Source: an uncultured Kiloniellales bacterium (GTDB taxonomy: Bacteria; Actinomycetota; Acidimicrobiia; Spongiisociales; UBA5794). From it: a stretch of DNA of 64,000 nucleotides. Made by a program: the position numbers and the translations under genes. The stretch lies in contig CAXMOP010000115.1 of assembly GCA_964195155.1 (NCBI GenBank), positions 4,986-68,985 on the forward strand. The letters run 5' to 3'. The notes under the pieces are model-generated. The model was not told where the DNA came from, searched no databases, and saw nothing but the letters and a program-made list of their open reading frames with translations. Position 1 is the stretch's first letter. Each line of letters begins with the position of its first letter. Below, in pieces: positions 1-52,167 of the stretch.

Positions 1-62
1 TCGAGCTGGGCGGGGACGATGCCGCGGACGTCATATGCCTTGAAGATGGTCTCGAGCTGCAC
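1..62 (-). CDS. 5' end (about 20 codons) of a phosphomannomutase/phosphoglucomutase-family gene running off the left edge
   Basis: The reverse strand reads GTG-QLETIFKAYDVRGIVPAQL, the N-terminal FKAYDxRG motif of alpha-D-phosphohexomutases. The GTG start is at 62-60. Confidence 0.4.
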   Translation of the reverse strand, partial: MQLETIFKAYDVRGIVPAQL

Positions 63-80
63 GGAGCAGGAGTGTATGAG

Positions 81-216
81 TCGTCAGTCGTCAGTCGTCA
101 GTCGTCAGTCGTCAGAGGGCGGCGAAAAGGACAACCGCGTCTTCGGGCTGAAGACTGTGGACTCAGGACTGTGGACCTGAGGCCTATGGACTTGAAGACA
201 GGACTTGGACTCTCTT
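81..216. repeat. Heptamer tandem arrays: (TCGTCAG)x5 at 81-115, then about 9 GGACTNN-type units at 153-216
   Basis: Read directly from the sequence. The CAGTC and GACTG cores are complementary, so the two arrays can pair. They lie in the divergent region between the pmm-like start (62) and the GT2 start (238). Confidence 0.85.
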
Positions 217-237
217 TCGCCTCCTACTCTCCCCGAC

Positions 238-936
238 ATGGCCAATGGAACGCCGACCTTCTCGATTGTGATCCCGGTTCATAACGAGGCGAGCTATCTC
301 CCGGGCGCACTCGCCGAGCTCTTCGCCGAGCTGTCGTCGGTCCCGGCCACGGTCAAGGTCCTCGTCGTGGAAAACGGATCGACCGATGCCACTGCGGCGA
401 CTGTGCAGTCGCTCGCCGAGGACTATCCCGGTCTCTCGCTGATCTCCCTTCCCGCCGCCGACTACGGGGCGGCGATGCGAGAGGGGTTTCTCGCTACCGA
501 CGGCGATTGGGCCGTCAATTTCGACATCGACTACTTCTCCGGTGCATTCCTGGCCAGGGTGCTGGAACTCGGGAGCGACGCCGACCTCGTGCTCGCGTCG
601 AAACGCGCCCCTGGAGCGGACGACCGCCGGTCGGGCTTCCGCCGTTTCGCCACCTGGGCGTTCAATCAGATTCTTCGCTTCGGTCTGGGGTCGAGTGTGT
701 CCGACACCCATGGCATGAAGGCGATCCGACGGGAGGTGGTGGCCGTTATCACCCCGGACTGCCGGTCGACCCAGGACCTGTTCGACACCGAGCTCGTGAT
801 GAGAGCCGAACGAGCCGGCTACCGCATCGTCGAGGTGCCGGCGGTAGTGGAAGAGAAGCGGGAGACTCGCTCCAGCCTGATGAACAGGGTGCCCCGCACC
901 CTGCGTGGAGTCATTGCGATTCGCCGGAACCTCTAG
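238..936 (+). CDS. Glycosyltransferase family 2, polyprenol-phosphate sugar synthase-like (Ppm1/GtrB/PpgS type)
   Basis: ATG at 238. TFSIVIPVHNEASYL, VVENGSTD and a DxD-like region are GT2 hallmarks. It is about 230 aa and soluble, as expected for a polyprenyl-P-sugar synthase. Confidence 0.75.
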   Translation: MANGTPTFSIVIPVHNEASYLPGALAELFAELSSVPATVKVLVVENGSTDATAATVQSLAEDYPGLSLISLPAADYGAAMREGFLATDGDWAVNFDIDYFSGAFLARVLELGSDADLVLASKRAPGADDRRSGFRRFATWAFNQILRFGLGSSVSDTHGMKAIRREVVAVITPDCRSTQDLFDTELVMRAERAGYRIVEVPAVVEEKRETRSSLMNRVPRTLRGVIAIRRNL

Positions 937-1751
937 CCGGGCAGTCCGGCGAGTTGCCGCAGCGAGGCCTCACTGTCGGCGTCGGCGGGTAGCAGCGCCT
1001 CCAGGCGAAGCTCCTCGAGCGTCACGTCGTAGGGGGCACCGATGGTGGCGATGGTGGTGAAGAGCTTCAGCTCCAGATCCTCGATACGGAGGTGCAGCGG
1101 TACCAGCAGCGCCGAGCTGGTCGGCACCGGCTGGGCCTCCGGGAGGTCGGCGATACCGGGATAGGACCGTACCTCCCCCAGCAGTTGGGTGAGGGTGGTA
1201 TCGGTCGGTCGGTCCATCGCCTCACGCTCGACACGGTCGAGCAGGGCCGTCGCTGCCTCTTCCCAGTTGACGAGGTACCGCCGCAGGCCCCTCGGGTGCA
1301 GCGACAGCCGGATGAGGTTGCCGGCAAACAACGCAACGTCGGTGGGGTCGATCAGCCGCGCCACCAGCGCCCCGGCCGCCTCGTTACTCAGCAACAGGTT
1401 CCAGCCCCGATCGACGACGTACGCGGGGAACGGCTCGTGCGCACCCAGGATCACGGACAGGACATGCCGCACCTGTTCGAGGCCCGGTTCGTCGAGGCGC
1501 CGTTCCTGGTACACCGGCGCGAAGCCGGCAGCGGCGAGCAGCGCGTTCCGATAGCGAAGGGGCACGTCAAGCGCCGTGCCGAGATGCAGCACCATCTCCC
1601 GACTGGGCTTGGCTCGCCCGGTCTCGAGAAAGCTCAGGTGACGCTGGGACACCGCGGCGGTTGCGGCCAGATCGAGCTGGCTGACCCGGCGGGCGGTGCG
1701 CCACTGCCTCAGCAGGTCGCCGAACTTGGGGGCGGAGCCGGTCGTGGTCAT
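933..1751 (-). CDS. XRE-family HTH transcriptional regulator with an MmyB-like C-terminal domain
   Basis: ATG at 1751 is confirmed in the sequence. The N-terminal HTH is LRQWRTARRVSQLDLAATAAVSQRHLSFLETGRAKPS. The 626-aa ORF in the track is an upstream-extension artefact. The stop overlaps the GT2 stop region at 933-936. Confidence 0.8.
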   Translation of the reverse strand: MTTTGSAPKFGDLLRQWRTARRVSQLDLAATAAVSQRHLSFLETGRAKPSREMVLHLGTALDVPLRYRNALLAAAGFAPVYQERRLDEPGLEQVRHVLSVILGAHEPFPAYVVDRGWNLLLSNEAAGALVARLIDPTDVALFAGNLIRLSLHPRGLRRYLVNWEEAATALLDRVEREAMDRPTDTTLTQLLGEVRSYPGIADLPEAQPVPTSSALLVPLHLRIEDLELKLFTTIATIGAPYDVTLEELRLEALLPADADSEASLRQLAGLPG

Positions 1752-1784
1752 GCGAGTCGAGCGTACTTCGCCGGGGGACCCGTT

Positions 1785-1803
1785 CCTATTACCTATTAGG
1801 TAA
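1785..1803. promoter_or_regulatory. AT-rich operator-like palindrome TTACCTA-T-TAGGTAA, preceded by an extra CCTATT half-site
   Basis: A perfect 7-bp inverted repeat with a 1-nt centre, in a 117-bp divergent spacer between the XRE regulator (start 1751) and a small membrane protein (start 1869). AT-rich sequence is rare in this 70% GC DNA. Confidence 0.6.
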
Positions 1804-1868
1804 TTGATTCCATTCCTAGCCGGTCTGATACTTGACGGGTCTGGCAAGAAACGGCACCAGGAGGATCC

Positions 1869-2285
1869 ATGAAGAACCAAGACGCTCGCAGCTCCCTGTT
1901 GGGCAGGGCGATGACCGACAACGGCCTGTTCTCCGGCACCGCCGGCATCGTGCTCATCATCGGTGCGGCGTTCGGCCTCGGTGGCTGGATCGGCATCAAC
2001 GCCTGGCTCCTGGCCGGCCTCGGAGTCGGTCTGGTGGTGTACGCCGCCGATCTGTTGTGGTTGGCGCGCTCCTCCCGCATGATCGTCGCCGGCGGACGGG
2101 CCGCGGTGCTGGCCGACGTCGCCTGGGTGATCGCCGCCGCAGCGTTGATTGCCTTCAGCGCGGTGCTGACCCGGCAGGGAGAGCTGGCCCTCGCCATCGT
2201 CAGCATTGTCGTCGCCGGGTTCGCAGCCGCTCAATGGATCGGCCTGAGGCGACTCAGCGACGCTGAGGACCACACCGCGGTGTAG
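1869..2285 (+). CDS. Small integral membrane protein (4 predicted TM helices), divergent partner of the XRE/MmyB regulator
   Basis: ATG at 1869 with a GGAGGA Shine-Dalgarno sequence 5 nt upstream. The hydrophobic segments are clear. Confidence 0.6.
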   Translation: MKNQDARSSLLGRAMTDNGLFSGTAGIVLIIGAAFGLGGWIGINAWLLAGLGVGLVVYAADLLWLARSSRMIVAGGRAAVLADVAWVIAAAALIAFSAVLTRQGELALAIVSIVVAGFAAAQWIGLRRLSDAEDHTAV

Positions 2286-2303
2286 ACCGTGTAGACAAGG
2301 GGC

Positions 2304-2886
2304 GTGCTCATCCGACGGGCGGTTCTCGACGGGGTCGTAGCGGGCGAGATCGATCTCGCCTTTCGACGCTGGGATCGCCCGTCGGTCAAGGTCGGAACCC
2401 GACAGCGCACGGCGGTGGGGATCATCGAGATCACGGCCATGGAGGTGATCGACCTCGCCAACATCACCGACGAGGAGGCCGTCCGAGCCGGCGCGGCATC
2501 GGCGGCCGAGATCCGGGCATGGCTCGGAGCAAGAACCGGCTCGGTCTATCGCATCAGCCTCATATACGCGGGAACCGACCCCAGGGTGGCGTTGCGCAAG
2601 GCCGAGATCACTACCGATGAGGACCAGTCGAAGTTGGCCGCTCAATTGGACCGCTTCGATGGAACCGGGCGCCGCGGGCCTTGGACGGTTGCGGTGCTGC
2701 GGGCCATCGGAGATGCGCCCGGCACCCCGGCGGCGGGATCTCGCCTTGCGGTTCGGCCGCGAGAAGCGCCTCTTCAAAACCGACGTGCGGAAACTGAAGG
2801 AACTCGGCCTCACCGAGAGCCTGCGACCAGGGTATCGGCTGTCGCCGCGGGGCCGGTCGTTCCTGAAACGGCTCGACGAAGACTAG
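2304..2886 (+). CDS. Hypothetical protein with an apparent +1/-1 frameshift near 2724-2738 (frame 0 from 2304, frame 1 to 2886)
   Basis: The frame-0 product looks protein-like up to GDAPGTPAAG. Frame 1 continues as RDLALRFGREKRLFKTDVRKLKELGLTESLRPGYRLSPRGRSFLKRLDED. The switch falls in the run caccccggcggcggg. Downstream, frame 0 reads antisense through gtrA and is not coding. Confidence 0.4.
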
Positions 2887-3035
2887 AGGATGCGCGGATA
2901 GGTGATCGGCCTTCTCGACAGAGGTGCTTCTTTGCCTTCCGCTCTTGCTGCTTCGCAGCGGGCCGCTCGGGCCCCGGCTCAGCGGATACTCTTTCTCAGA
3001 TCGTGACCGGAATCGCGCCCTACCCGCTGAGCCTC

Positions 3036-3503
3036 TTAGTCGGCCGCTACCGGCTCAGCCGCTTCCTCCCCGGCGAGGGCACGGCCGAACACGATGTCAC
3101 GGTACGAGGCGAACTTGGGGAGCAGGATCATCACCGAGGCGAACAGATAGACCCCGTTGGCGGCAACGGCAGACAGCGGGCCGAAGAACGACTCGGCAAG
3201 CCACATGATGCCGGCAGTCACCGCCCAGGCAGCCCCATTGACCAGGTAGAACTGGAAGGTCTCGCGCCCGGACAGTTTCCCGTCGCGCAGCTCAAAGGTC
3301 CAGGTGCGGTTGAGCAGGTAGGAGAGGAACGTCGTCACGGCGAAGGCAACCGACACCGAAGCCACCGACGACCAGTCGAATCCGATCAGGAAGAGGTTGA
3401 ACAGCGCAAACGACACCACGGTATTGACCACGCCGACCACGCCGACCTTGACGAACTGGTCGAGCGACTCACGATTGAGGAAGCTCTCGACATACTGCTT
3501 CAC
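3036..3503 (-). CDS. GtrA-family small membrane protein (polysaccharide/lipid-sugar flippase-like)
   Basis: GTG at 3503 preceded by GAGAGGA. It is a 155-aa protein with 4 TM helices and matches the GtrA/DUF2304 profile (VKVGVVGVVNTVVSFALFNLF...). The GTGA overlap with the upstream gene's stop (3500-3503) indicates translational coupling. Confidence 0.8.
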   Translation of the reverse strand: MKQYVESFLNRESLDQFVKVGVVGVVNTVVSFALFNLFLIGFDWSSVASVSVAFAVTTFLSYLLNRTWTFELRDGKLSGRETFQFYLVNGAAWAVTAGIMWLAESFFGPLSAVAANGVYLFASVMILLPKFASYRDIVFGRALAGEEAAEPVAAD

Positions 3504-5725
3504 ACGCCGGTCCTCTCGTTCCGCTCCCGCCGCCGCAAATACGCATAGGCGGCCAGCCCACCAAGCGCGAGCACGGTGAGCACCATGCCGATGTTCTCGG
3601 CACCGGTGTTGCGAAACTCGAGGACTACATCTTCCTGGGTGGGAACGACCACCATCAACGACGGCGCGGCACGGTATGGCCCCTCGGCACCATCCACCTG
3701 CCAATTCGGGAAGTAGGAGATCTTGACCAGATGCGGAACACCAATGGCGGTGGTGGTAAACGACAAGCGATGGTTCTCGAGTACCACGTTGGTCACGGAG
3801 CCGCCCTCCGGATACGGATCGCTGGAGATGAGCCGATCGCCGACCGAGGTCACGGCGGGCCATTCCGCCGGACCGGTCTCGACGAGCCAGTGGTCGAGGT
3901 TGGCGACGTCGTCGTACCACTCGAGTGATGGCTCGAGGAAGTCGCCGCCACCGCCCCACACCGCAGGCGTGACGGTGGCCACGTCGACGAAGTCGGAGTC
4001 CGGCAGCGCGAAGATCGTCCACGGCAAGGCGACACCGACTTCAACGAGGCCTGAGTCTCGAGCCGCGGTTTCCCCACGTTCGGTGAAACTGACGTAATAG
4101 GCCACGTCGTAGAGGGCGAGATGCTGAATACCGCGATCGAGGTCGAAGCCCCGGTAGTCGAGGCCGCGCACCGGGTTGGACGGCCGATCACTGACTTCCG
4201 AGGCGTTGAGGAAGTGGAATGGTGTGGTGAGGGATGATTCGAAGAACAGACCCTCCATGGACGGGTGCTCCTCGCTCCAAAAGCCCGTCAGCATGAGGGC
4301 CATCGGCGTGCCGTACTGGTTGAGTTCGTGGTTCGCCTCCCACATCACCCGGCCAGGCGGGAGTCCGTCGATCTCCTGCATGAGGGCCTCGTATTCGTGG
4401 TAGTTGGGCTTGCCCTCATACCCCTCGTAGTTCCACTTGACCCAGCCCGGAACGTCGTGGATGTTGGCAATGGTGGCGACAAGCACCAGAAACCCGGCAA
4501 TGAGGGACCCGGCGATCAGCACGGTCCTGCGCGCCGACGATCGCCTGGCCACTTCGGTCACCGCGAGTCCCAACGCAATACCGGCAAATACAAACATCCC
4601 GAAATACCAGTACGGCAGCAGCCGGGCGTTGTAGAGGATCGTGACGCCAAGAAGGGGCAGCACGAGATATCCGACGATGGGCAGGACGGTCAACCACGCC
4701 AATGCCACCACGTCGTCACGTCGCAGCATGCTCCACACCACGCCGACACCGCCGAGGATGACGACCGGAACGAACTCTCCCGGGAGCGGGGTCCCGGGAC
4801 TCTGCTCGCCGACGAGACCCGTTACCGCCGACCACCCCATGTCGGTCGTCAGCCCGCCCATCACGCCGAGGATGAGCGGAAGTGCCCAGAACGCGGCAAT
4901 GCCGAAGCCAAGCAGCCACGAGGGAAACACGACCCGTGGCCCGCCCTTACGGAACAGGAGGGGCACCGTTGCGATGACGATGATCATCGTGGTGACGATG
5001 TGGCTGAGCGCGGTCAGCCCGAGCAGCACGCCGGCGAGCGGCGTCCAGCCTCGGCCCTCGCGCACGTCGCGCACGACCACGCCGAGATAGAGGATCGAGA
5101 GGGCAAAAGACCACGAGAAGGAGAACTCGCCGGCGAGGGTGGACTTGATGTTGGCGCCGAAGATCGAATAGCTCTCCATGAACAGAAACATCCCGCCGGC
5201 CACAGCGGCGATCCCTGCGATCGGACGGGAGAACCCGGACATGCGGGAAAACAGATAGGTCACGGCGGGGAGGGCAACCAGGCCGACGATGGTGACCAGC
5301 TTGAACGCGACCCCGTAGGGAAGGACCACGTCGAGCAGCACCGTCGTGACCGCAGGCAAAGGGAAGTAGAAGTAGAGGACGGGGAAACCGGCATACCAGG
5401 CGTTCGACCAGCCCAGCAGCCTTCCCGATGAAATCAGATTGTCCGCCAACACCTTCGGCAGCAGGACGTGGGCGCCCATATCTCCGCCGGTCGGGGTGTT
5501 GGCGACCAGCAGCTGCGGGAATCTGATGAGATCACCGCTGCCGATCGTGCCCAGGATTCCCGACATCACCAGCAGGATGAGCAAGGTGGGAGCGCCGACC
5601 AGGACCGCAATCACCCAGGTCGGCACACCCTGGCGCGGGGTGAGCGGACGGCGAGGAGGCGCCGACTCTGGCGGCGCGATCGCGGTGGTTGACACCAGCG
5701 GCAGGCTAGAGGAGGTGGTGAGCAA
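3500..5725 (-). CDS. Large polytopic membrane protein, GT-C-like glycosyltransferase candidate (about 12 TM N-terminal, about 250-aa extracytoplasmic C-terminus)
   Basis: 741 aa. The architecture and the position upstream of gtrA match a GtrC-like/GT-C transferase. Confidence 0.7.
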   Translation of the reverse strand: MLTTSSSLPLVSTTAIAPPESAPPRRPLTPRQGVPTWVIAVLVGAPTLLILLVMSGILGTIGSGDLIRFPQLLVANTPTGGDMGAHVLLPKVLADNLISSGRLLGWSNAWYAGFPVLYFYFPLPAVTTVLLDVVLPYGVAFKLVTIVGLVALPAVTYLFSRMSGFSRPIAGIAAVAGGMFLFMESYSIFGANIKSTLAGEFSFSWSFALSILYLGVVVRDVREGRGWTPLAGVLLGLTALSHIVTTMIIVIATVPLLFRKGGPRVVFPSWLLGFGIAAFWALPLILGVMGGLTTDMGWSAVTGLVGEQSPGTPLPGEFVPVVILGGVGVVWSMLRRDDVVALAWLTVLPIVGYLVLPLLGVTILYNARLLPYWYFGMFVFAGIALGLAVTEVARRSSARRTVLIAGSLIAGFLVLVATIANIHDVPGWVKWNYEGYEGKPNYHEYEALMQEIDGLPPGRVMWEANHELNQYGTPMALMLTGFWSEEHPSMEGLFFESSLTTPFHFLNASEVSDRPSNPVRGLDYRGFDLDRGIQHLALYDVAYYVSFTERGETAARDSGLVEVGVALPWTIFALPDSDFVDVATVTPAVWGGGGDFLEPSLEWYDDVANLDHWLVETGPAEWPAVTSVGDRLISSDPYPEGGSVTNVVLENHRLSFTTTAIGVPHLVKISYFPNWQVDGAEGPYRAAPSLMVVVPTQEDVVLEFRNTGAENIGMVLTVLALGGLAAYAYLRRRERNERTGV

Positions 5726-5883
5726 TCCTCCGGCGGGCCGCTGCGGTCAGGAGAAACCAAGTCACCGGATTATCCGAGCAAGCGGCGGCACGTAGCACTC
5801 GTCATTGTTCACCACCGTCCTAGTGAGGCAGGCTTTCTAGGGGTATGGCCGGCAGCCGTGCGCGCCGCCGCCCAAGCATCGCT

Positions 5884-6084
5884 TCAGGGTTCGCCGCGCT
5901 CCACATCGAGCAATGCGCCGAGTTCGAGATGCTCACCGTCGCGGTCCCACCACTTCGACTCACAGCGGTGGCATGAGCAGAAGATGACCTGAGAGCCATC
6001 CGGGAGGGTCAGCTCGATCTGGATGACCGAGTCGTTGCCACATTCTGCGCAGCGGAGCCCGGATGAGGGTTCTTGCCTTCCCAT
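5884..6084 (-). CDS. Small zinc-ribbon protein (CxxC...CxCHRC)
   Basis: 66 aa with CAECG and CSCHRCE cysteine pairs. Confidence 0.5.
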   Translation of the reverse strand: MGRQEPSSGLRCAECGNDSVIQIELTLPDGSQVIFCSCHRCESKWWDRDGEHLELGALLDVERGEP

Positions 6085-6103
6085 GACCGGTCAGGGTAGC
6101 GCG

Positions 6104-6391
6104 CTAAGCGCGAAAAGCGGCCTCTGGGAGGTCCTCGAGTTTGCCGAGGTAGCGCGACCGACGTTTGCCGTCCTCGGACCAATAGGCGTACCAATACGGG
6201 CCGTGGGGACAGCGGGTGCAGCTCTCCTTTCCGCAACGCACCTTCTGCTGGCGCAGCTTCACGTTGGGCCCGCGGTCGGAGAGCACCAGGCCCCGGCTCT
6301 CCAACCGGGCCTTGGCCAGGATGTAGAGGCGGCGCAGTTCGTGCTCATCCATCTCACGGACCGCCTCGAGCACATCTCTGTCGATTGGCAT
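6104..6391 (-). CDS. Hypothetical protein with a C-terminal CxxxxC..C..H motif
   Basis: ATG at 6391 is confirmed (MPIDRDVLEAV...). The C-terminus reads CGKESCTRCPHGPYWYAYW. Confidence 0.5.
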   Translation of the reverse strand: MPIDRDVLEAVREMDEHELRRLYILAKARLESRGLVLSDRGPNVKLRQQKVRCGKESCTRCPHGPYWYAYWSEDGKRRSRYLGKLEDLPEAAFRA

Positions 6392-6449
6392 GGAGCAAAC
6401 GAACTTAGGGCTCGGCGGGCTTCGGACCAAGGACTCAGGCGGTTGCCGG

Positions 6450-6512
6450 CCACTGGCCACTGGTCATTGGTCACTCGTCACTGGTCACTCGTCACTGATC
6501 TCACTCGTCACC
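6450..6512. repeat. Heptamer tandem array (CACTGGT/CACTCGT)x about 8
   Basis: Directly visible as ccactggccactggtcattggtcactcgtcactggtcactcgtcactga. It lies between two co-directional minus-strand genes. Confidence 0.85.
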
Positions 6513-6891
6513 GATCAAGCCCCGCTCGCCTTGCCGCGTCGCTCAGCGATCGCCGTCTCGGCACGCCGGCGACGAGGAGCTCGACCCGGAGGTCCCGATT
6601 GACTACCGCGGTGAGCGGGACGGATTCGACGCCGAGCTCCTCGAACACGGTCGGCTCGAGCTCCCAGGTGACCTCTCTCAGCGGCACACCGAGGGACTCA
6701 ACCATTGCCAGGGCTTGCTTGCAGTTCGCGCAGTCGGTGGAAGTGAAGACGACGACCCCGGGCTTGTCGGTGAGACCACCCAGGTCGATCGGCGGATGGG
6801 ATGGGCGGCGCCATCGTGCGATGAGCCTGGCGATGGCGATCACGATCAGGACTGCCAACAGCACGACGGCAATCCTGATCGCGATCGTCAC
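6508..6891 (-). CDS. Membrane-anchored thioredoxin/glutaredoxin-like protein (CANC motif)
   Basis: GTG at 6891 overlaps the upstream stop (GTGA). An N-terminal TM helix is followed by VVVFTSTDCANCKQA. Confidence 0.6.
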   Translation of the reverse strand: MTIAIRIAVVLLAVLIVIAIARLIARWRRPSHPPIDLGGLTDKPGVVVFTSTDCANCKQALAMVESLGVPLREVTWELEPTVFEELGVESVPLTAVVNRDLRVELLVAGVPRRRSLSDAARRAGLDR

Positions 6892-8348
6892 TCGACCGGG
6901 ATCCCGCCGATAAAGGCCACGCCGCGGCTGCTGGAAACGGAAAGGGCGGCACTGATTGGCACGGTCGCATCGATGATTACGCCGGACGTTCCGCTCTCGG
7001 TCACCTCGCCGAACGGGATCTCCACCTGCCGGCCCGGCAGGATGATGATCTTGTCCGGCCCTGCCGCGGCGGCGCCGAGTGGGGTGATGGTCACCGTGGC
7101 CTGATCGCCAGACGGGTTGATGATCCACAACGAGGTTTCGGCGGCAGGAACCACTCCGACACCGGGGATGATCCAGCGGGTCGCGGGATCGATATTGCCG
7201 GTCGTTGACGCCAGCCCGTTGAAGACCGCCGGCACCACGGGCTCTTCGGCTACAACGTCGCCCTCACCACCGCTATCGGGGGGCGGGTCCGCCGCATCGT
7301 CGGAGATGTCGTCGCCCACCACCGGATCAGCGCGGGGAAATGTGCCGGGCGGCGCAGCCTGGATCACTGCTCCCACCGGGACATTCGACCTGACCCTGAC
7401 GCCGAACGGCGGGTCGGCAAAGTCGCTCAGCTCGAGCCGTATCGGCTGGTTTGGCGACACCAACAGGCTAGTTACCTCCAGGATCGGCCCGCCGGGAGCG
7501 AAGATGTCGATGGCGACGTTCGCGGCCAGGCTGCCGGTATTGGAAAGGACGAGGGTGGGTTCGAGGCCGGGAACGCTGGTCACCGGGAAGTCCCAGGTCG
7601 CCGAACGACTCGTCCCGTTCCAGGTGGCTTCGTCTTGCTCGTTGCTCAGCACCAATGCGGGAATGACCAGCCCGGGATCGGTCTGCACGGTGAGGGTGAC
7701 GGTGTCGAGGAAGGGGATCACCCGAGAGAGGTCCTCGGTGACCCACGATCGGCCGGGAACGTCGAGCCCCTCGAAGCCGCCGAGGGGTGAGCTCCCGAAC
7801 TCACTGATCGCTTGCACCGTCACCTTGGCCGACTCCGGGAACGGATTGAAGAGCCTGAGCTGCAGGGTGAAACCCTCCGCGGTCGTGCCACCGACGAGGT
7901 GCCATACCTTCGGCACGGAGGCCACGCACTGGTCCCCACTCAGCAGATTCTCGGTCCACATCGCGGTGGTCACCACCGCCGGGCCGTCGTCGAACTCCAC
8001 GATGCCGGGCGACTCGCCTCGTCGCACGATCTCCGCGGTGTCGACGCTGCGGGCATCGGCGCCTTGCAGCTGGAATGCCAGGAGGTCCGGCTCGAGGATC
8101 GGGTTGACGTTTGGCAGCGTGATGAGTGCTTCCACATTGACCGCAGTGGCCACGTCGTATGTTGAATCCCTGACCGCGCCCGACGCCACCCACGGGCAAT
8201 ACCAGACGCTCTCCTCGCCCACCGCGCCGGCGGCATCGACCGGGACGGGGAACCCGAGGGCGGAGCCTTGGGACGGCACCGGCTCTGGCTGAACGAACGC
8301 CAACCCCGCCAGGACCATGAGTACGACGACGACGGCGATCCTTCTCAT
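6888..8348 (-). CDS. Secreted protein of unknown function (signal peptide MRRIAVVVVLMVLAGLAFVQP)
   Basis: ATG at 8348 forms an ATGA overlap with the upstream GT2 gene's stop. 487 aa, rich in beta-type sequence, with no recognisable catalytic motif. Confidence 0.65.
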   Translation of the reverse strand: MRRIAVVVVLMVLAGLAFVQPEPVPSQGSALGFPVPVDAAGAVGEESVWYCPWVASGAVRDSTYDVATAVNVEALITLPNVNPILEPDLLAFQLQGADARSVDTAEIVRRGESPGIVEFDDGPAVVTTAMWTENLLSGDQCVASVPKVWHLVGGTTAEGFTLQLRLFNPFPESAKVTVQAISEFGSSPLGGFEGLDVPGRSWVTEDLSRVIPFLDTVTLTVQTDPGLVIPALVLSNEQDEATWNGTSRSATWDFPVTSVPGLEPTLVLSNTGSLAANVAIDIFAPGGPILEVTSLLVSPNQPIRLELSDFADPPFGVRVRSNVPVGAVIQAAPPGTFPRADPVVGDDISDDAADPPPDSGGEGDVVAEEPVVPAVFNGLASTTGNIDPATRWIIPGVGVVPAAETSLWIINPSGDQATVTITPLGAAAAGPDKIIILPGRQVEIPFGEVTESGTSGVIIDATVPISAALSVSSSRGVAFIGGIPVE

Positions 8349-11131
8349 CCGAATCTCCGCCCCGCCCACGCAGAGACAACCAGCACAGACAGCCAAACGG
8401 CGGCGAGGATCGCCTGGGTGCGGCGCTCACCGATCGGAGCGAAGGCGGCCGTCCCGCTGTCCGCCGAAACCTCGTTCCACACGCCCGATTGAGCCCAAGG
8501 CGCAGGTCCCCATCGGCCGTGTGCGTTGTCGCGAACGGTGAGTCGGCTCCCCGTCTCCGCGGTCCCCTCGTAGTCGGCGCCGACACTCGGCCATGCGATT
8601 CCGGCCGACGTCATGGAACGGAAGGCTCCCGCTGCCTCAATTTCATACGTCTCGTTCTCCAACCCTGCGCTGAGCGAGACGATGTCGAGTTGGCCGGTCA
8701 GCCGCTCGGACCAGGCCGCGGCGTAGGGCTGGTCCTGCATGATCACGATCCATCGGATGCCGAAGGAGGCAAGCGCCTCGCCCGCCCGGGAGGTCTCCCC
8801 AGCGATGACCGACAACAGCTCGGCGTGCAGCGCGTCGTCTGCGGGCCGCGGTGCGGCGAGATCGGCCTCCCACAACTCGACCGTGGGCGCCGAGACGACC
8901 CGGTAGGCCGCGCCCTCGATGATGCGCTCGTCGCCCGGCAGCTCCCCGGGTGCACCGAGAAGCAACACGCGAGACTCGGCGGCGTCGCCGGGTCGAGCCT
9001 CGGTGAAGGCAAGCGCCTCGCGATACCGGTCTGGAGGGAGCCCCGCCCTCCCTCCCAGCAATACGGTGGACGAGGCCGCCAGCAGCACCAGGGCGCCGGC
9101 AACGGCGACGCCGCCGACGATCCGCCGCCAGCCGCTGGTCTCGGAGCGCGTGATGGCCTCGAGCGCCGCACCGGTGATCGCCGCCAGACCGAGCGTGACG
9201 AGGGTCAATCCGGCGTATCCGATCTCGCTGCCACCGCCGAGACCGGCACTCCTCGCCAGGAGGGCTCCGCCGGCAGCGAGCACGCCGCCCCAACCGGCAA
9301 CCAGGGCAAGGCGCCGCGGCGCCGAGACGACGACGGCCACGGCTGCGATCATCGTCGCCGCGACCACCACGATCGAGGTCGACCAGAATGCGGCACCCTG
9401 GGTGAGGAATACGTTCAGATCGACGGCGCCGGCCCACGGAAACAGCATCGGAATCGCCAGGACGACTCCCGCGCCGCTGATCGCCACGGCCCGCCACGCC
9501 CCGCCGTCGTTCACGTTGATCAAAGCCCATACCAGCAATGCCACAACCGGCACGAGTAGCAGCGAAGGAGAAGCCAGGGCGACGATGCCGGTGCTGGCGC
9601 CGATAGCGGCGACCCGACCTGCCCGGCCAAGGGCGGTCTTCGGCCACCGGGCCAGCGCCAGTCGCAGCACCAACGGAACCACACCAAGCCCGATCATCGT
9701 CCCGATGGCGGTCTGCGAGGCCAGACCCTGGTACGCCGACCCGGTCACGTACACCAGACCGGCAAGGGTGCCGGGCACCGCCTTGATCCCCCATCCACGC
9801 AGCAATCGAACGGTCCCCCATACCCCGAGGAGGGCCGATCCGGCGATGGCTACATACTCGGCGAGCCGGCCGGAGTCGAGGGTCAGCCCGCGTAGAACGC
9901 TGACGACGGCAACCAGTGGCGGAAGCACCTCTTCGCTGCCGAATCCGGCGGGGTTCCATCCACCGGCATACGCGCCGAGGCCCGCCAGCCAGGAGCCCGG
10001 AAACGCCAGACTCTCGCCAACGGCCGGAAGCCCGAACGACCAGAGCGAGCGGACGGCGATCAGGACCAGGAACACCGCGGCGACACCCACGATCAACGAC
10101 GGTCGCCGCAACTCCTGGCCGATCGCCTCAACCCCGATCGCGTCTTCACCGGGAAGCCTGGCCCTGATCCGGTCCGACAGTTGAGACGAGGTGCGTTTGA
10201 GTGATACCGACCCGCTGACTTGATAGCGGAAGAGCTCTTCATCGCCGACGGCACGCGCATGTCTGGCGCGTCGGCGCTCCCCGAGCGTGTTCGGCAGACG
10301 CACCAGATTCCAGGCCCAGGCGCGAAGCCAGTCGAAGAACGTCCATCGGCCCAGGAACAGGGAAAGCGTCGAATCGGCAAAGCCGGAAAGGAAGGCAACC
10401 GGCACCGTCCACAGCAGGGTCAACGGCCCGTAGACCTTGCCCATCGCCCGGAACCTGCCGGCGCGCTCGCGCCACGGCTCCCGCTCGGTTCCCCCGTCCA
10501 CAACGAGAACCTCAGACGACGGGACCACGATGACCCTTGCGCCGCGGAGCCGTGCCCGCTGGCAGAAGTCCGTCGCCGCGGCGAGGGACGGCAGGAGTCG
10601 GTCCGGCCCTCCGAGGCCGCGAGCGAGGTCTCGTCGCACGAACAGCGACTCACCGCCGACGGCTGCGACATCGCGCACGACGTCGTACTGGCCCTGGTCG
10701 AGTTCGTCGTCGTCGAGCCCGGTGTACGGGGAATCAAAGACGTCGGTGGCGAAGCCGACCGACAGCAGGTGACCCGGATCGTCGAGGTCGAGGATCTTGG
10801 ATCCGGCGACCGCAGCGTCAAGGGAGGTCGCGGTGTCGGCGAGGGCGGCAAGGGCATCGGTGCGGGGTCTGGCGCCGCTGCGCACAAACCAGAGGTGGCT
10901 CGCGGTGCTGCCATCGCGGGAAAACATGGCGGCGATGGCCGGAAACCATTCGACGTCCTCCGCACCGGCGAGACGACGCGCATCGGTGTCACCGCCGATA
11001 ATGACGATCTCGTCCGACTCGTACACTTGGCCACGAACCGCATCGAGGGTTTCGGCAAGGCCGGGCGTGCTGCCAACGAGAATGGCGGTGACGACCGAGG
11101 CGGGGTTCGCTCCCGCGGAAGAGGCTGACAT
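8345..11131 (-). CDS. Glycosyltransferase family 2 domain fused to a large (about 650-aa) polytopic membrane domain
   Basis: The N-terminus SVVTAILVGSTPGLAETLDAVRGQV with ESDEIVII is GT2-like, and the remainder is highly hydrophobic. The start at 11131 is tentative: it overlaps the cofD start divergently (catg) and has no Shine-Dalgarno sequence. Confidence 0.7.
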   Translation of the reverse strand: MSASSAGANPASVVTAILVGSTPGLAETLDAVRGQVYESDEIVIIGGDTDARRLAGAEDVEWFPAIAAMFSRDGSTASHLWFVRSGARPRTDALAALADTATSLDAAVAGSKILDLDDPGHLLSVGFATDVFDSPYTGLDDDELDQGQYDVVRDVAAVGGESLFVRRDLARGLGGPDRLLPSLAAATDFCQRARLRGARVIVVPSSEVLVVDGGTEREPWRERAGRFRAMGKVYGPLTLLWTVPVAFLSGFADSTLSLFLGRWTFFDWLRAWAWNLVRLPNTLGERRRARHARAVGDEELFRYQVSGSVSLKRTSSQLSDRIRARLPGEDAIGVEAIGQELRRPSLIVGVAAVFLVLIAVRSLWSFGLPAVGESLAFPGSWLAGLGAYAGGWNPAGFGSEEVLPPLVAVVSVLRGLTLDSGRLAEYVAIAGSALLGVWGTVRLLRGWGIKAVPGTLAGLVYVTGSAYQGLASQTAIGTMIGLGVVPLVLRLALARWPKTALGRAGRVAAIGASTGIVALASPSLLLVPVVALLVWALINVNDGGAWRAVAISGAGVVLAIPMLFPWAGAVDLNVFLTQGAAFWSTSIVVVAATMIAAVAVVVSAPRRLALVAGWGGVLAAGGALLARSAGLGGGSEIGYAGLTLVTLGLAAITGAALEAITRSETSGWRRIVGGVAVAGALVLLAASSTVLLGGRAGLPPDRYREALAFTEARPGDAAESRVLLLGAPGELPGDERIIEGAAYRVVSAPTVELWEADLAAPRPADDALHAELLSVIAGETSRAGEALASFGIRWIVIMQDQPYAAAWSERLTGQLDIVSLSAGLENETYEIEAAGAFRSMTSAGIAWPSVGADYEGTAETGSRLTVRDNAHGRWGPAPWAQSGVWNEVSADSGTAAFAPIGERRTQAILAAVWLSVLVVSAWAGRRFG

Positions 11132-12101
11132 GAACGACGCTATTCAAGAGACGAAGCCGCGCTATTCCAATCATCCGCGCCTTGCCGTCCTATGCGGCGG
11201 CGTCGGCGGGGCACGGGCGGCCAGGGCTCTGGCGAGTGTCCTCCCCGCCCCGCATCTCACCGTAATCGGCAACGTCGGGGACGACGAAGTGCGCTACGGC
11301 GTCCACGTGTCGGCAGACATGGACACGATCGTGTACACCCTGGCCGGGCTTCAGGGCCCGCACGGGTGGGGCATCGCCGGGGACACGTTTGCCGTGATGG
11401 ACCAATTGTCGGTGCTCGGTGAGGACACCACCTTCCGGCTCGGCGACCAGGATCTGGCCACCTGTCTGCATCGGACGGTTCGGCTGGGGGCCGGTGATTC
11501 CCTGTCGACGACGATCGCCGAGGGTGCTGCCGCGTTTGGCGTCACGGTGCTGGTCCTCCCGGCCACCGATGATCGGCTTCGCACCGAGATCATCACCAGC
11601 GACGGGGAGCGCCTGGCCTTCCAGGACTATTTCGTCATCCGTGGTCACCGCGATGAGGTCGCCGGGCTCGACTTCGTCGGCAGCGAGGCGGCAGTGCCTG
11701 CCCCGGGTGTGGTGGAGGCGATCGAGGAAGCCGATGTCGTCGTCATCGCACCGTCGAACCCGCCACTCTCGATCTGGCCGATTCTTGCGGTTGGCGACAT
11801 CGCGGCGGCGGTGGATCGGCACGACCGGGTGGTGGCGATCAGCCCGCTGTTCGGGGGTGCGCCCATCAAGGGACCGGCCGATCGTGTCCTCGCCTCGCTT
11901 GGCTTTGCGCCGGGAAATGAGGGAGTTGCGGGTGCCTATGCCGGTCTGCTCAGCGATCTCGTCATCGACGTCGGTGACGCCGCCGACATCGAGCTGCTGG
12001 CGGCGCCCCAACTGGCCGTGCACGCACTTGACACGCGAATGGGTGGGCCCAATGCGGGTAAGCGCTTCGCCGCCTCCCTGCTGGAGACGCTCGGATGGTG
12101 A
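11130..12101 (+). CDS. cofD: 2-phospho-L-lactate transferase CofD (FbiA), F420 biosynthesis
   Basis: LAVLCGGVGGAR, the DTIVYTLAG region and GWGIAGDTF are CofD/LPPG:FO transferase hallmarks. Confidence 0.85.
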   Translation: MNDAIQETKPRYSNHPRLAVLCGGVGGARAARALASVLPAPHLTVIGNVGDDEVRYGVHVSADMDTIVYTLAGLQGPHGWGIAGDTFAVMDQLSVLGEDTTFRLGDQDLATCLHRTVRLGAGDSLSTTIAEGAAAFGVTVLVLPATDDRLRTEIITSDGERLAFQDYFVIRGHRDEVAGLDFVGSEAAVPAPGVVEAIEEADVVVIAPSNPPLSIWPILAVGDIAAAVDRHDRVVAISPLFGGAPIKGPADRVLASLGFAPGNEGVAGAYAGLLSDLVIDVGDAADIELLAAPQLAVHALDTRMGGPNAGKRFAASLLETLGW

Positions 12102-12796
12102 AGCGGATCGAGCTCATCCCCGTTGAGGGAGTTCCGGAGGTCCGGTCGGGCGACGAACTCGGCGGGATGATCGTCGCCGCCCTGGCGTCGTCGGGCGAGT
12201 CGCTCATCGACGGCGACGTGCTGGTCGTGACCCACAAGGTGATCTCGAAAGCCGAGGGACGGATCGCCGAGGTCGCTTCGGAGGAGGACTACCGAAAGCT
12301 GGTGGAGGACGAGGCCGAATCCATCATCCGCCGGCGGGGCGACCTCGTCATCACCAAGACGCGCCACGGCTTCATCTGCGCCAACGCCGGTGTCGATCGC
12401 TCGAATACCGCAGAGGGAACCGCGGTGCTGCTGCCGATCGAGCCGGATCGATCGGCCCATCGCCTTCGCGTCCAGATCCAGCACATGTTCGGGGTGTCGA
12501 TTGCCGTCGTAGTCACCGACACCTTTGGCCGCGCCTGGCGCCGCGGCCTGGTCGACGTGGCCATCGGGGTGTCTGGCCTGCCGGCGATCGTCGACCTGCG
12601 CGGCACCACCGACGCCTTCGGCCGAGTCCTCGACGTCACCGAGATCGCCCTCGTCGACGAGATCGCCGCTGCCGCCGACCTGGTGATGGGCAAGGCCAGC
12701 CAGGTCCCGGCGGCAATCCTGCGCGGGCTCACCCTCACCGGCGACGGCCGGGCCACCGACCTGGTCCGCCCCCCCGATGAAGACCTGTTCCGATGA
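12095..12796 (+). CDS. cofE: Coenzyme F420-0:L-glutamate ligase CofE (FbiB N-terminal domain type)
   Basis: An ATGGTGA overlap with the cofD stop. The VITHKVISKAEGR and ICANAGVD motifs are present. Confidence 0.85.
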   Translation: MVKRIELIPVEGVPEVRSGDELGGMIVAALASSGESLIDGDVLVVTHKVISKAEGRIAEVASEEDYRKLVEDEAESIIRRRGDLVITKTRHGFICANAGVDRSNTAEGTAVLLPIEPDRSAHRLRVQIQHMFGVSIAVVVTDTFGRAWRRGLVDVAIGVSGLPAIVDLRGTTDAFGRVLDVTEIALVDEIAAAADLVMGKASQVPAAILRGLTLTGDGRATDLVRPPDEDLFR

Positions 12797-12878
12797 GTCG
12801 CGAGTCACGAGTCGCGAGTCGCGAGCCCGAATCTTCGGTCGTGGTTTTGCTCGCGACTCGCGACTCGCGTCTGGCGTC
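12795..12878. repeat. Inverted heptamer arrays (GAGTCGC)x4-loop-(GCGACTC)x3 forming a long hairpin
   Basis: Directly visible as gagtcgcgagtcacgagtcgcgagtcgcgag ... ctcgcgactcgcgactcgcg, between cofE and fpg. Confidence 0.9.
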
Positions 12879-23125: not shown

Positions 23126-25720
23126 ATGCTTTTTGGCGATGGTACCCAGGGGGGCCATTTCTATTCCCCACCTCCACCGGTCTATTCGCCACCAGCAAGA
23201 ACGTTCATGACCATGGATCCCAATATCCACGAGGCCCATCGCAGGGACCGCCGCCGCAGGCGGCTCCCATCGTTACTGCTGCTCACGATCATTGTGATCG
23301 TCGGGGCGAGCTGGGTCGGGTTGTTCGGGTTCCTCGGCTCCACCTCCGCAATGGGCACCGTCGAGGAAGTGGAGGAGCGGTTTCTCTGCGACATCAGCGG
23401 CGTCGATCTTTCCTTCCCCGATGTTTCCCGCCTCTCCGCGGTCGAGACCAGCGATGGCGTCGAGCTGGGCAAGCTCTCAGAGCGGAACAGCCAGCCGATC
23501 CCGATCGACGAGATCCCCGAGCTCGTGGTCAATGCGTTGCTCTCCGCCGAAGACAAGAGCTTCTACGAGCACGAGGGGGTCGACTTCCTGGCGGTGTTCC
23601 GTGCCGCCACCAGCGGTGGCGAGAGCGGTGCTTCCACGATCACCCAACAGGTCGTGAAGCAGAACTTCCTCAGCTCGGATCGCACCATCGAGCGAAAGAT
23701 CTGTGAGGCGCAGTTGGCGACCGAGCTGGAACGCCTATATACGAAGGACCAGATCCTCGAGTTCTATGCCAACTCGGTCTTTTTCGGCGCCAACGCCTAC
23801 GGGATCACGGCGGCAGCCCAGGAGTACTTCGGGAAGCCGCTCGAGGACCTCGACGCTGCCGAGGCTGCCACGTTGGTCAGCCCGATCAGGAACCCAAGCT
23901 TCTACCACCCACGCCAGAACCCGAGCAACGCCATCGGTGTCCGCAATCGCACCATCGCGAGCATGGAGGAGAACGGGTTCATCACCGCCGAGGAAGCAAC
24001 CGCGGCCAAGAGCCAGTCACTTGGTGTGCTCCCCCACTCCGAACGCGAGGAACTCGCTCCACAGGTCATGATCGCGGTGCGTCGCGCATTGCTTGACGAC
24101 ACCACAAACCGATTTGGTCTCGGCACTACCTATACCGAGCGCAAGCAAGCGGTGTTCGGGTGCCCGGCTGCGGACACCACGTGCGCCGGCGGGGGCGGCC
24201 TGAATATCGAAGTCACCGTCAACTTCGATTGGCAAACCGAAGGAACCCGGATCTTGCGGGCCTGGTATCGGCACGATGCCGGCGGGCCAACCGGCGCCAT
24301 CGCGACCGTGGAGAATGCGACCGGCGCGATTCGCGTGCTGGCGTCTGGCGTCGAGTACGGCACCGACCTCGCCGCCGGGGAGCGGCCATACGACCTTGCT
24401 CTCGAAGGGCGACGCCACGCCGGGTCGGCATTCAAGCCCTACACGCTGGCGGCGGCGCTCGAAAGCGGTGATCTGAACGGGCGGCCGGTCACCTTGAACT
24501 CGTACTGGGACCGAGGCAGGCCGGCCGTGATCGATTGTGGCTTCCCGTGTTCCTCGCGCGGCAATTTTTGGGTGGTCGATGCGGGCCTGAACACCCCTCA
24601 TGAGTTGCGTACCCTCGAGTCCGCAACGGTGTCGTCGCTGAATCCTGTCTACGCCAGGTTGATTGCCGCCATCGGCGCCGAGCCGGTCGTCGACATGGCC
24701 TATCGGCTCGGCATCCGCACGTCGGAGGTGAAGCCGGTGTATGCGGTGACCCTGGGCGCAGCGTCGGTCAGTCCGCTGGAGATGGCATCTGCGTACTCGA
24801 CCTTCGCCAACCAGGGGAACTACCTGGAGCCTTACCTGATCGAACGGATCACCGACTCGTCGGGCAACGTGATCTACCAGCATCGTCCCCAGCCGGAGCG
24901 AGTGCTCTCGCCGCAAATCGCTGCGGCGGTGACGACGACGCTCGAAAAGGTCGTCGCCGGGGGCACCGGTACCCGGGCCAAGATAGACCGGCCGCAGGCG
25001 GGCAAGACCGGAACGGCAACCGACAACACCGACGTGTGGTTCGTCGGATTCATCCCGCAATACTCCACTGCGGTGTGGGTCGGCTATCCCGACGGCGCGG
25101 TTCCGATGAAGAACTTCACGATCTTTAACGACGTCGAAGGCCGCGAGCAGTCGATTCGCCAGGCCTTCGGGGGCACGGTCGCCGCTCCCGCCTGGCGCCA
25201 GTTCATGCTCTACCTCACCGACGGTCTCGAGGTTCTCGACTTTCCCGAGCCGCCGGAGGGCACCAGCCAGTACTACCGCGTGCCGGGGACGCGGGTACCC
25301 AATATCAACCTCGAGAACATGAACCTCGCCAGGATCGAGGATCTGATCTATGCCGCCCACCTGCGCGTCGCGCTCGTCGAGGTCCCATCGCTCGAAGAGG
25401 TGGACACGCTGCTCAGCATGACGCCGGGATCGGGCGCGTCGATGGGTCAGGGCGGGGCCGTGACCATCGAGATCTCGATCGGCATCCCTGAGGAGATCGT
25501 GAGCCCGAACCTGGTCGGTCTGCCGGTAATCGAAGTCGATCCCACCCTCAATGCGTTCCTCGCCGAGTTCGCCGTCCAGCTCAACTGGGTGCGGCAAGAT
25601 GTCGAGACACCCGATCCCGCCCAGTGGGGACGCGTCGTCGCCACCGACCCCCCGCCGGGGGCCCTGGTGAGGCCCGGCGACACGATCATCGTGTCGGTTG
25701 GAGTCCAGCCAAGTAGCTGA
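23126..25720 (+). CDS. Class A penicillin-binding protein (PBP1A: transglycosylase plus transpeptidase plus a C-terminal PASTA-like tail)
   Basis: ATG at 23126 follows GGAGGG. A proline-rich cytoplasmic tail and a TM helix precede the domains. The GT51 motifs [12 protein letters not shown] and RKICE, the SAFKP serine and the KTGT box are all present. Confidence 0.85.
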
Positions 25721-25744
25721 GTCGCGAGTCGCGAGTCGCGAGTC
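25719..25744. repeat. (GAGTCGC)x3.5 heptamer array immediately after the PBP1A stop
   Basis: Directly visible. Confidence 0.9.
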
Positions 25745-25970: not shown

Positions 25971-26048
25971 CGGTCACCGGTCACCGGTCACCGGTCCCTG
26001 GTCACTGGTCATTGGGATCTGCTCGCGTCACGGGTCTCGGGTCTGGCG
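25971..26048. repeat. Heptamer array (GGTCACC)x3 then GGTCCCT GGTCACT GGTCATT ...
   Basis: Directly visible. Confidence 0.85.
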
Positions 26049-27743: not shown

Positions 27744-27806
27744 GCAAGAGGCCCGAGTCCGACTCTCGACTCATGACTCTCGACTTAAGGCTCTCGACTC
27801 ATGACT
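27714..27806. repeat. Inverted heptamer arrays (GAGTCNN)x about 6 and (GACTCNN)x about 6 forming a long imperfect hairpin between convergent genes
   Basis: Directly visible. Confidence 0.85.
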
Positions 27807-52137: not shown

Positions 52138-52167
52138 GGACTCGCGACTCGCGACTCGCGACTCAGT
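52138..52167. repeat. (GACTCGC)x4 heptamer array in a divergent promoter region
   Basis: Directly visible. Confidence 0.9.

Follow-up and report, generated by a model that had tools for sequence, protein, structure and literature searches.

The window, the 64,000-nucleotide stretch of DNA analysed here, probably brings together two entities that lie side by side: a core glycosylation set made up of a GT2 glycosyltransferase, a GtrA-family membrane protein and a GT-C-fold transferase; and a self-contained pair consisting of an MmyB-like regulator and a small protein with four hydrophobic helices (4-TM). Every gene described in an earlier note on this DNA was found at its stated position, as were the GTGA overlap, the spacer of 117 bp and the palindrome (Table 1). 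The Acidimicrobiia are an abundant group of Actinomycetota, most of them uncultured, and little appears to be known of their envelope chemistry.

Table 1. Position and strand of the features of the window discussed in the text.
Feature	Position	Strand	Remarks
pmm (phosphomannomutase/phosphoglucomutase), 5' end	1–62	-	Runs off the window's left edge; divergent from GT2
Heptamer tandem array (AGTCGTC)x5.3	79–115	.	TRF; pmm/GT2 divergent intergenic region
Heptamer tandem array (GACTGTG)x5.6	153–192	.	TRF; pmm/GT2 divergent intergenic region
GT2, 232 aa, soluble	ORF 205–936; 238–936 from ATG 238	+	PF00535 E 5.9e-18
XRE-HTH/MmyB-like ligand-binding regulator, 272 aa	933–1751	-	PF17765 E 8e-29; HTH_31 1.6e-08
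Regulator/4-TM shared spacer, 117 bp	1752–1868		
Predicted operator, 17-bp perfect palindrome	1788–1804	.	ATTACC-TATTA-GGTAAT
4-TM protein, 138 aa, four helices	1869–2285	+	Four hydrophobic segments; divergent partner of regulator
ASCH + winged-helix (ASCH-wHTH) gene	2304–2886	+	Disrupted by +1 G at 2734–2736
Inverted repeat, two 13-nt arms (92% complementarity) separated by 32 nt	2976–3033	.	Between converging ASCH-wHTH and GtrA
GtrA-family membrane protein, 155 aa	3036–3503	-	PF04138 56.7 bits (gathering cut-off 26.1)
GT-C-fold glycosyltransferase, 741 aa	3500–5725	-	GT-C fold
Conserved neighbours upstream of GT-C, same strand	5884–11131	-	Pfam matches
Zn-ribbon protein, 66 aa	5884–6084	-	GT-C upstream neighbour
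DUF6788-like protein	6104–6460	-	GT-C upstream neighbour
Thioredoxin/glutaredoxin-like protein	within 6508–7128	-	GT-C upstream neighbour
DUF5719	6888–8396	-	GT-C upstream neighbour
GT2-plus-membrane protein, 928 aa	8345–11131	-	GT-C upstream neighbour

When translated from ATG 238, the GT2 has the length called in its relatives. Its top partial NCBIfam matches were ArnC and a Dol-P hexose transferase; and a profile of its orthologues, searched against the PDB, matched ArnC (3.9e-18), GtrB sll0501 (1.7e-14) and DPMS (2.6e-11) over positions 4–170. Only these three were matched across the full catalytic domain (with the profile; the single sequence was also searched), other GT2s aligning to approximately the first 100 positions of the profile only. 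At the level of sequence, the protein is predicted to be a polyprenyl-phosphate-monosaccharide synthase. Its gene lies outside the GtrA/GT-C operon and is convergent with that of the regulator, the two stop codons overlapping in CTAG (933–936). The pmm-like gene reported at the left edge is present with its start codon at 62–60; its translation VQLETIFKAYDVRGIVPAQL matches the start of a PGM_PMM_I-IV protein of 445 aa in relatives, and a PGI/PMI gene lies beyond it. Heptamer arrays comparable to those between pmm and GT2 are also present in other intergenic regions of the window. Phase variation through the copy number of the pmm/GT2 arrays was considered and rejected, the copy number being identical in seven near-identical assemblies.

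The GtrA assignment is borne out by the PF04138 model. The GTG start codon of this gene (3503–3501) overlaps the TGA stop codon (3502–3500) of the 741-aa ORF as previously described; the 4-bp overlap, which couples translation of GtrA to that of the GT-C gene, is also present in relatives. Where the 741-aa ORF begins is uncertain: TTG 5725 is possible, and for identical DNA gene callers predicted a product of 704 aa. The presence or absence of a GT-C fold had been proposed as the test of this protein, and the fold was found. In the structural model, which is of low confidence for the outer loops at 60–81 (60–70, 76–81), 110–119 beside D82 and 433–440, a polytopic N-terminal half is followed by an outer C-terminal domain of ~270 amino acids and a final membrane anchor (708–740); and the acidic residue D82, which is invariant, lies in the first outer loop.

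By sequence, the 741-aa protein had no match to any Pfam model at E ≤ 0.01, those for GtrC (PF14264), YfhO (PF09586), PMT/PMT_2 and STT3 included; and none to NCBIfam or to the PDB. A profile of distant GT-C relatives gave nothing meaningful against the PDB, a cluster look-up of these relatives returned no useful annotation, and 119 of the 120 GT-C matches listed carried no precomputed Pfam domain. PF10131 (PTPS_related), a family listed as of unknown function, was matched by 22 of 35 GT-C relatives at 28–59% identity (best E 1.4e-39), the window GT-C itself giving no match at E ≤ 0.01 or at the gathering threshold of this family. PF10131 is a member of the GT-C clan (PMC7801869). By these sequence comparisons, the window GT-C and its close relatives appear to be a divergent Acidimicrobiia branch beside PF10131.

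A scan of GTDB with one genome per species yielded 585 candidate stretches that encode a GT-C relative. Of 74 loci, at least 57 have the GT2 orthologue immediately after GT-C/GtrA and convergent with them, and seven further loci have a divergent GT2 at the same place; and pmm adjoins GT2 in 54 of 64. GtrA occupies the slot between GT2 and GT-C in at least 46 of the 74 loci and is missing from it in about 26, so that it is not obligatory there. Nearly all of the 80 Acidimicrobiia loci keep the upstream neighbours, from the Zn-ribbon protein to the 928-aa GT2, in the same order; cofD and cofE lie past this block, and a literature search on DUF5719 found nothing. GT2, GtrA and GT-C are genetically linked, although GT2 is convergent rather than co-operonic. 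The domains, the GT-C fold and the co-conservation next to pmm uphold the Gtr-like three-component reading of these genes and support a three-part surface glycosylation set held together across the Acidimicrobiia. Such a class-wide set, flanked by pmm-PGI/PMI on one side and by the DUF5719/large-GT2/cofD-cofE block on the other, suggests that there is a core surface glycoconjugate, for the synthesis of which GT2, GtrA and GT-C are testable candidates.

From the domains, fold and co-conservation observed, we infer a donor, an acceptor and a flippase role as follows. On the inner side of the membrane, the GT2 would use a nucleotide sugar to charge polyprenyl phosphate with its sugar; this sugar is possibly mannose, because pmm is divergent from GT2 and is itself followed by PGI/PMI. 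The GtrA-family protein would then aid or perform translocation of the lipid-linked sugar; and the GT-C would transfer it to an acceptor outside the membrane, perhaps a wall glycopolymer, a lipoglycan or proteins, with D82 as the likely catalytic base.

The same three-step logic of GT2 lipid-sugar synthase, GtrA-family protein and GT-C transferase is followed by GtrA/GtrB/GtrC O-antigen glucosylation and by Gram-positive CsbB/GtcA/YfhO teichoic-acid glycosylation (PMC8035078, PMC5836110, PMC7389260). The window GT2 resembles GtrB in its profile match to sll0501, but is without C-terminal membrane helices. By comparison with the Gtr systems, GT2 does not share an operon with GtrA and GT-C but is convergent with them; by Pfam, the GT-C is neither GtrC nor YfhO, its relatives belonging to PF10131; and the set is core to the class, not phage-borne or serotype-variable. 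The mycobacterial PpgS (Rv3631)/Rv3632/Rv3779 set for arabinogalactan galactosamine is, like the set described here, actinobacterial, and by description includes a helix-free GT2 of ~240 amino acids (no membrane segments) for polyprenyl-P sugar synthesis, a small partner that is an integral membrane protein, and a membrane-bound transferase for which the lipid-linked sugar is the donor on the outer side (PMC3485146). The mycobacterial genes, however, are distributed over two loci, are accessory and are absent from M. smegmatis (PMC3485146), whereas the Acidimicrobiia set is a class-wide conserved locus next to pmm.

A different role for the 741-aa GT-C, as an OST-like or PMT-like protein glycosyltransferase acting on secreted or membrane proteins and not on a polysaccharide, is unlikely. 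The core and C-terminal domain resemble AglB, but AftA and ArnT score almost equally and Foldseek ranked AftD first. Directly after the last core helix, at the site where OSTs have WWDYG, there is a conserved W431-N-Y-E-G435; the true WWDYG is missing from the start of the outer C-terminal domain, the equivalent place reading W428-VK-W431-NYEGYEGK, which is similar in position only, and the lack of an STT3 or PMT Pfam match also argues against this role. Partnership with a monosaccharide-type GT2 and GtrA speaks against a lipid-diphosphate-oligosaccharide donor, although PMT-like O-glycosylation would still fit. Returning to the three-part set, a tentative and rather doubtful extension is that an undescribed pathway, conserved in Acidimicrobiia, glycosylates the envelope or proteins, with the PF10131-related GT-C acting at the outer face. 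GT2/pmm would supply this pathway with a polyprenyl-P-hexose, possibly of mannose, and it would be functionally tied to the co-conserved 928-aa GT2, DUF5719 and Zn-ribbon genes. If true, this would provide the first function for a PF10131-type GT-C, and thereby for a GT-C family listed as unknown; and the C-terminal domain of this enzyme would be OST-like and fixed to the membrane by an anchor on either side.

For the second entity, the MmyB assignment was confirmed with PF17765 (101.3 bits; cut-off 26.3) and HTH_31 (35.1 bits; cut-off 27). Regulators of the MmyB type typically have a target gene that is transcribed divergently from the same upstream region (PMC3406030); the window regulator has a divergent gene, a shared spacer and a palindromic site that is its predicted operator. 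The palindrome TTACCTATTAGGTAA (1789–1803) reported previously extends to the perfect 17-bp ATTACCTATTAGGTAAT, which ends 36 bp before the regulator ATG on one side and 64 bp before that of the 4-TM gene on the other (an alternative start of the 4-TM protein is ATG 1911). It is unique in the 64-kb window, with no second copy even at two to three mismatches; and across five related loci its arms do not change, in contrast to the variable centre and flanks. MltR of Chloroflexus and MmyB and SCO4944 of Streptomyces likewise combine an XRE helix-turn-helix with a PF17765 domain and have a divergent target gene, from which they are separated by a short spacer, together with a (pseudo)palindromic site (PMC3406030). 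The reported partners of the S. coelicolor MmyB-type regulators are dehydrogenases or antibiotic genes, whereas the partner in the window is a small 4-TM protein. This protein had no Pfam or NCBIfam match and just 20 homologues in 5.8 billion proteins; the possibility that it is a second GtrA-like protein was rejected (hhalign probability 0.3%). A sigma-70 promoter scan of positions 1–6500 gave no site, an Rfam scan of 1–12000 gave no match, and terminator-like sites occurred at chance frequency.

Regulator homologues of 57–62% identity were found in four unrelated genomic contexts. The divergent partner is a distant 4-TM homologue in three of these (HMM E 1.5e-23, 8.3e-16 and 3.6e-07); and in all four an A[TC]TACC-N5-[GC][GA]T[AC]AT site, a relaxed pattern composed after the sites had been seen, lies 33–47 bp upstream of the ATG of the regulator homologue. 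None of the 80 species-level loci contained an MmyB or a 4-TM match. At the locus described here, the pair is present in relatives with a GT-C 81–91% identical, plus L088 and L089, and is restricted to genomes with a GT-C at least approximately 81% identical. Its absence from the 80 loci, its self-contained occurrence elsewhere and the lack of a second operator copy point to a recent insertion into a variable slot; and on sequence grounds the pair appears to be a separate two-gene unit inserted in a narrow sublineage. The earlier note had the glycosylation set split by the regulator pair: the pair does sit there, but not as a design feature. It would have been inserted, with its own operator in the shared promoter region, between converging GtrA and GT2.

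The same note took this layout to suggest ligand-responsive control of the glycosyl modification, a suggestion that the comparative data do not support. Direct control of the flanking glycosylation genes by a regulator responding to a hydrophobic ligand is very unlikely in this lineage, given that all 80 species loci function without the pair and that the sole operator lies in the regulator/4-TM spacer; moreover, the flanking genes converge on the pair, so that no promoter region is held in common, and regulator and equidistant operator recur in the four unrelated contexts, three with the 4-TM partner. In favour of direct control are the location of the pair between GT2 and GtrA/GT-C, its retention at this site in every relative having it and the capacity of MmyB domains to bind lipids, e.g. 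myristate (PMC3406030), polyprenyl-linked intermediates being lipids. Further, all 4-TM homologues of > 60% identity with a checked context are located at this same site, so a local functional tie to the glycosylation genes is possible. We also regard as highly improbable an indirect effect, whereby transcripts of the derepressed pair would run antisense into GT2 and towards GtrA and dampen glycosylation by transcriptional interference. This purely layout-derived proposal draws on the overlapping stop codons of regulator and GT2, which leave no space for a terminator, and on the convergence of the 4-TM and ASCH genes on GtrA; however, convergent overlaps are frequent in compact genomes and the inverted repeat on the GtrA side, possibly a two-way terminator by its sequence, could block read-through. 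In the two-entity reading, the regulator would bind the predicted operator as a dimer and, upon a hydrophobic ligand, control its own gene and the 4-TM gene but not the glycosylation genes. MmyB, 4-TM and operator would then be a small, well-defined regulon with a now predictable binding site; and the regulator a cautionary case, in which adjacency in a single genome hinted at regulation for which comparison across genomes gives no support.

The slot probably also took in the ASCH-wHTH gene between 4-TM and GtrA, which was overlooked previously and is now frameshifted in most of the population. A tblastn search with an intact 192-aa orthologue placed the frame switch at 2735/2737. Assembly error was rejected as the cause because the frameshift is shared by seven of eight independent, near-identical assemblies; the remaining one (L096) has one G fewer and encodes an intact 193-aa product.

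The window has a G+C content of about 65% and uncultured Acidimicrobiia as its nearest relatives. A one-genome-per-species scan returned 585 candidate stretches coding for a relative of the GT-C protein; we compared the proteins of the window by tblastn with the best 80 of these loci, every one of which comes from a MAG and which carry, with few exceptions, the label Acidimicrobiia or Actinomycetota. The common order was a 928-aa GT2, DUF5719, a thioredoxin-like protein, a DUF6788-like protein, a 66-aa Zn-ribbon, GT-C, in some loci GtrA and, on the opposite strand, the small GT2, with pmm, Trm112, PGI/PMI and SahH past the latter, and cofD and cofE past the 928-aa GT2. The slot (the space between the converging GtrA/GT-C and GT2 genes) was scored in the 74 loci with sufficient downstream sequence. 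A GT2 ortholog (≥ 45% identity) directly followed GT-C/GtrA in at least 57 and a far more divergent GT2 (26–34%) did so in seven others; GtrA was in the slot in at least 46 and had no room there in about 26. pmm adjoins GT2 in 54 of 64 loci. By this order and these counts, the trio of GT2, GtrA and GT-C belongs to a core locus of the class, and is neither accessory nor a phage-type Gtr cassette. As about 26 of the 74 loci have no GtrA in the slot, GtrA would be dispensable or encoded elsewhere across a whole subclade.

Several features of the surroundings were also recorded. In GtrA-less loci (e.g. L022, L031, L061, L066 and L076) the distance from GT-C to the convergent GT2 is just 1–160 bp. 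The Acidimicrobiia-wide block upstream of GT-C, at 5884–11131 (−) and 10797–12796 (+) in the window, codes for the 66-aa Zn-ribbon, the DUF6788-like, thioredoxin-like and DUF5719 proteins, and the 928-aa protein, a GT2 plus polytopic membrane protein; cofD and cofE come after it. A literature search on DUF5719 found no paper. The flanks resemble, and may correspond to, the actinobacterial pmm-to-fbiAB region (M. tuberculosis order manA, pmmA, whiB2, fbiA, fbiB). The description in the earlier note was confirmed in every detail for the start/stop overlap at GTGA, for the regulator pair's spacer of 117 bp and for the palindrome in this spacer.

Features at the left end of the window
Feature	Position	Strand	Remark
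pmm N-terminus	<1-62	-	
GT2	238-936	+	PF00535, E 5.9e-18
XRE/MmyB regulator	933-1751	-	PF17765, E 8e-29
4-TM protein	1869-2285	+	without family match
ASCH + winged-helix gene	2304-2886	+	overlooked in the earlier note
GtrA	3036-3503	-	PF04138, 56.7 bits (cut-off 26.1)
741-aa membrane protein	3500-5725	-	

The 741-aa protein had no match in Pfam, NCBIfam or PDB sequences. A word-indexed search gave 3884 homologs with E ≤ 0.001 among 8000 candidates scored, and an exhaustive profile search gave 3613 cluster representatives. PF10131 (PTPS_related), a family of the GT-C clan with its function listed as unknown (PMC7801869), was matched by 22 of 35 relatives at 28–59% identity (best E 1.4e-39). An AlphaFold model of the protein (39 homologs; pLDDT 76.5, pTM 0.78) was closest in fold comparison to AglB (20.3) and AftA (19.7), followed by STT3B (17.8), Pmt4 (17.6), ArnT (16.5) and PglB (16.5); all eight Foldseek matches at E ≤ 1e-3 were GT-C proteins (AftD, STT3, ArnT, AftA, DPY19). 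The three-component interpretation of the earlier note depended on this fold and survives, since the fold was found when the model was compared; the 741-aa protein is, by its modelled fold, a GT-C enzyme. D82, which lies within an invariant TPTGGDMGAH after the first membrane helix and is kept throughout the family of the 741-aa protein, is likely to be the catalytic acid in the first outer loop. An OST- or PMT-like, protein-glycosylating role for the GT-C is a less likely but serious alternative: in its favour are the AglB-like top fold matches and a conserved WNYEG where OSTs carry WWDYG, although the WWDYG motif proper is absent.

When the single GT2 sequence was searched against the PDB, ArnC was the sole match. 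A profile of 29 orthologs aligned over positions 4–170 with ArnC (3.9e-18), GtrB sll0501 (1.7e-14) and Pyrococcus DPMS (2.6e-11), and the remaining GT2 enzymes to just about its first 100 positions. We assign the window GT2, on its sequence, to the polyprenyl-phosphate type; unlike ArnC, GtrB and DPMS it stops at 232 aa and does not have their membrane helices, a trait that it shares with PpgS and Ppm1/D2 of mycobacteria (PMC3485146). The slot GT2 of L007, L017, L023, L025, L029, L034 and L037 has merely 26–34% identity to that of the window while GT-C identity in these seven loci is still 54–59%, and it may be a swapped synthase with different sugar specificity.

In the proposed mechanism, GT2 would load a sugar onto polyprenyl phosphate, for which mannose is a candidate solely because pmm and PGI/PMI lie nearby; GtrA, which belongs to its family by PF04138, would aid translocation, as its counterparts do in other systems (PMC7389260, PMC8035078); and GT-C, given its modelled fold, would hand the sugar over outside the membrane. 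The working logic is that of the Gtr, CsbB/GtcA/YfhO and PpgS/Rv3632/Rv3779 sets. In contrast to these, the window GT-C comes from another, uncharacterised family, a divergent PF10131 branch; the GT2 is soluble and in convergent arrangement; and the set is a class-wide conserved chromosomal locus. The trio offers a lead into both the envelope chemistry of Acidimicrobiia and the function of PF10131.

The MmyB regulator and the divergent 4-TM protein had no tblastn match in any of the 80 loci, and the ASCH-wHTH gene was found there in L001 and L044 only. The pair is confined to close relatives (L081, L082 and L084–L086, with GT-C 81–91% identical, also L088/L089), invariably in the GtrA-GT2 slot, with the ASCH-wHTH gene variably present. 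The palindrome in the spacer is actually 17 bp long (ATTACCTATTAGGTAAT, 1788–1804). In pair-bearing relatives its arms ATTACC/GGTAAT are constant and the five central bases and flanks vary, the pattern expected for a dimer-binding operator, for which it is a candidate. Regulator homologs number thousands (about 5500), and the 4-TM protein has just 20 detectable homologs (word-indexed search). Four regulator homologs with 57–62% identity in unrelated genomic contexts (L090–L093) each have a divergent small gene at 100–200 bp, which is a 4-TM homolog in three of the four (HMM E 1.5e-23, 8.3e-16 and 3.6e-07). All four spacers contain A[TC]TACC-N5-[GC][GA]T[AC]AT, ending 33–47 bp upstream of the regulator ATG by comparison with 36 bp in the window; this relaxed pattern was devised post hoc from the sites, so their constant position is the stronger argument. 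According to PMC3406030, an MmyB-type regulator and the target transcribed divergently from it have a short upstream region in common, a rule that the window and L090–L093 regulators fit.

The earlier note had suggested ligand-responsive control of the glycosylation genes by this pair. This is unsupported: the pair is absent from all 80 loci, the operator occurs once in the 64-kb window with no second copy found there, and the four regulator homologs of L090–L093 have a similar site, three of them together with a 4-TM partner. The most economical reading of these comparisons is that regulator and target form a self-contained unit which would have landed in a variable slot. A residual possibility is that convergent transcription interferes with the glycosylation genes, which is conceivable because the stops of GT2 (TAG, 934–936) and of the regulator (TAG, minus strand, 935–933) overlap in the palindrome CTAG at 933–936, leaving no terminator space between both genes.

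The 4-TM protein was ruled out as GtrA-like (hhalign probability 0.3%). Its most distant detectable homologs, P0288–P0290, have about 40% identity. The homolog at 1696–2088 of L087, the one such context checked, has transglutaminase-like and NIPSNAP neighbours and no adjoining MmyB regulator; the 4-TM protein is therefore not invariably linked to the regulator.

Tandem arrays of 7-nt units or 14-nt doubles are present in the window at 79–115, 153–192, 6451–6516, 12795–12825, 25719–25744, 25971–26011, 27712–27806, 52139–52164 and 63473–63512, with units AGTCGTC, GACTGTG, CACTGGT, GAGTCGC, CGGTCAC, GACTCGC and CTCTCGACTCAAGA. The four arrays checked are all intergenic, and no copy-number variation of the 79–192 arrays was seen in the seven assemblies compared.

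The ASCH + winged-helix gene has an ASCH-like N-terminal part in the ORF from 2304 (weak Pfam match) and a winged-helix C-terminal part in frame +1 from 2737. Alignment with the intact 192-aa ortholog of L082 shifts frame at 2735/2737, owing to one extra G at 2734–2736. Among eight independent assemblies, 99.6–99.75% identical to the window, seven have GGG as in the window; the eighth, L096, has GG and codes for an uninterrupted product of 193 aa. An assembly artefact was rejected since seven of the eight share GGG; the frameshifted allele is real and is dominant in this population. Intact orthologs lie in the corresponding slot of L082 and, it appears, of L001 and L044, both of which do not have the MmyB pair.
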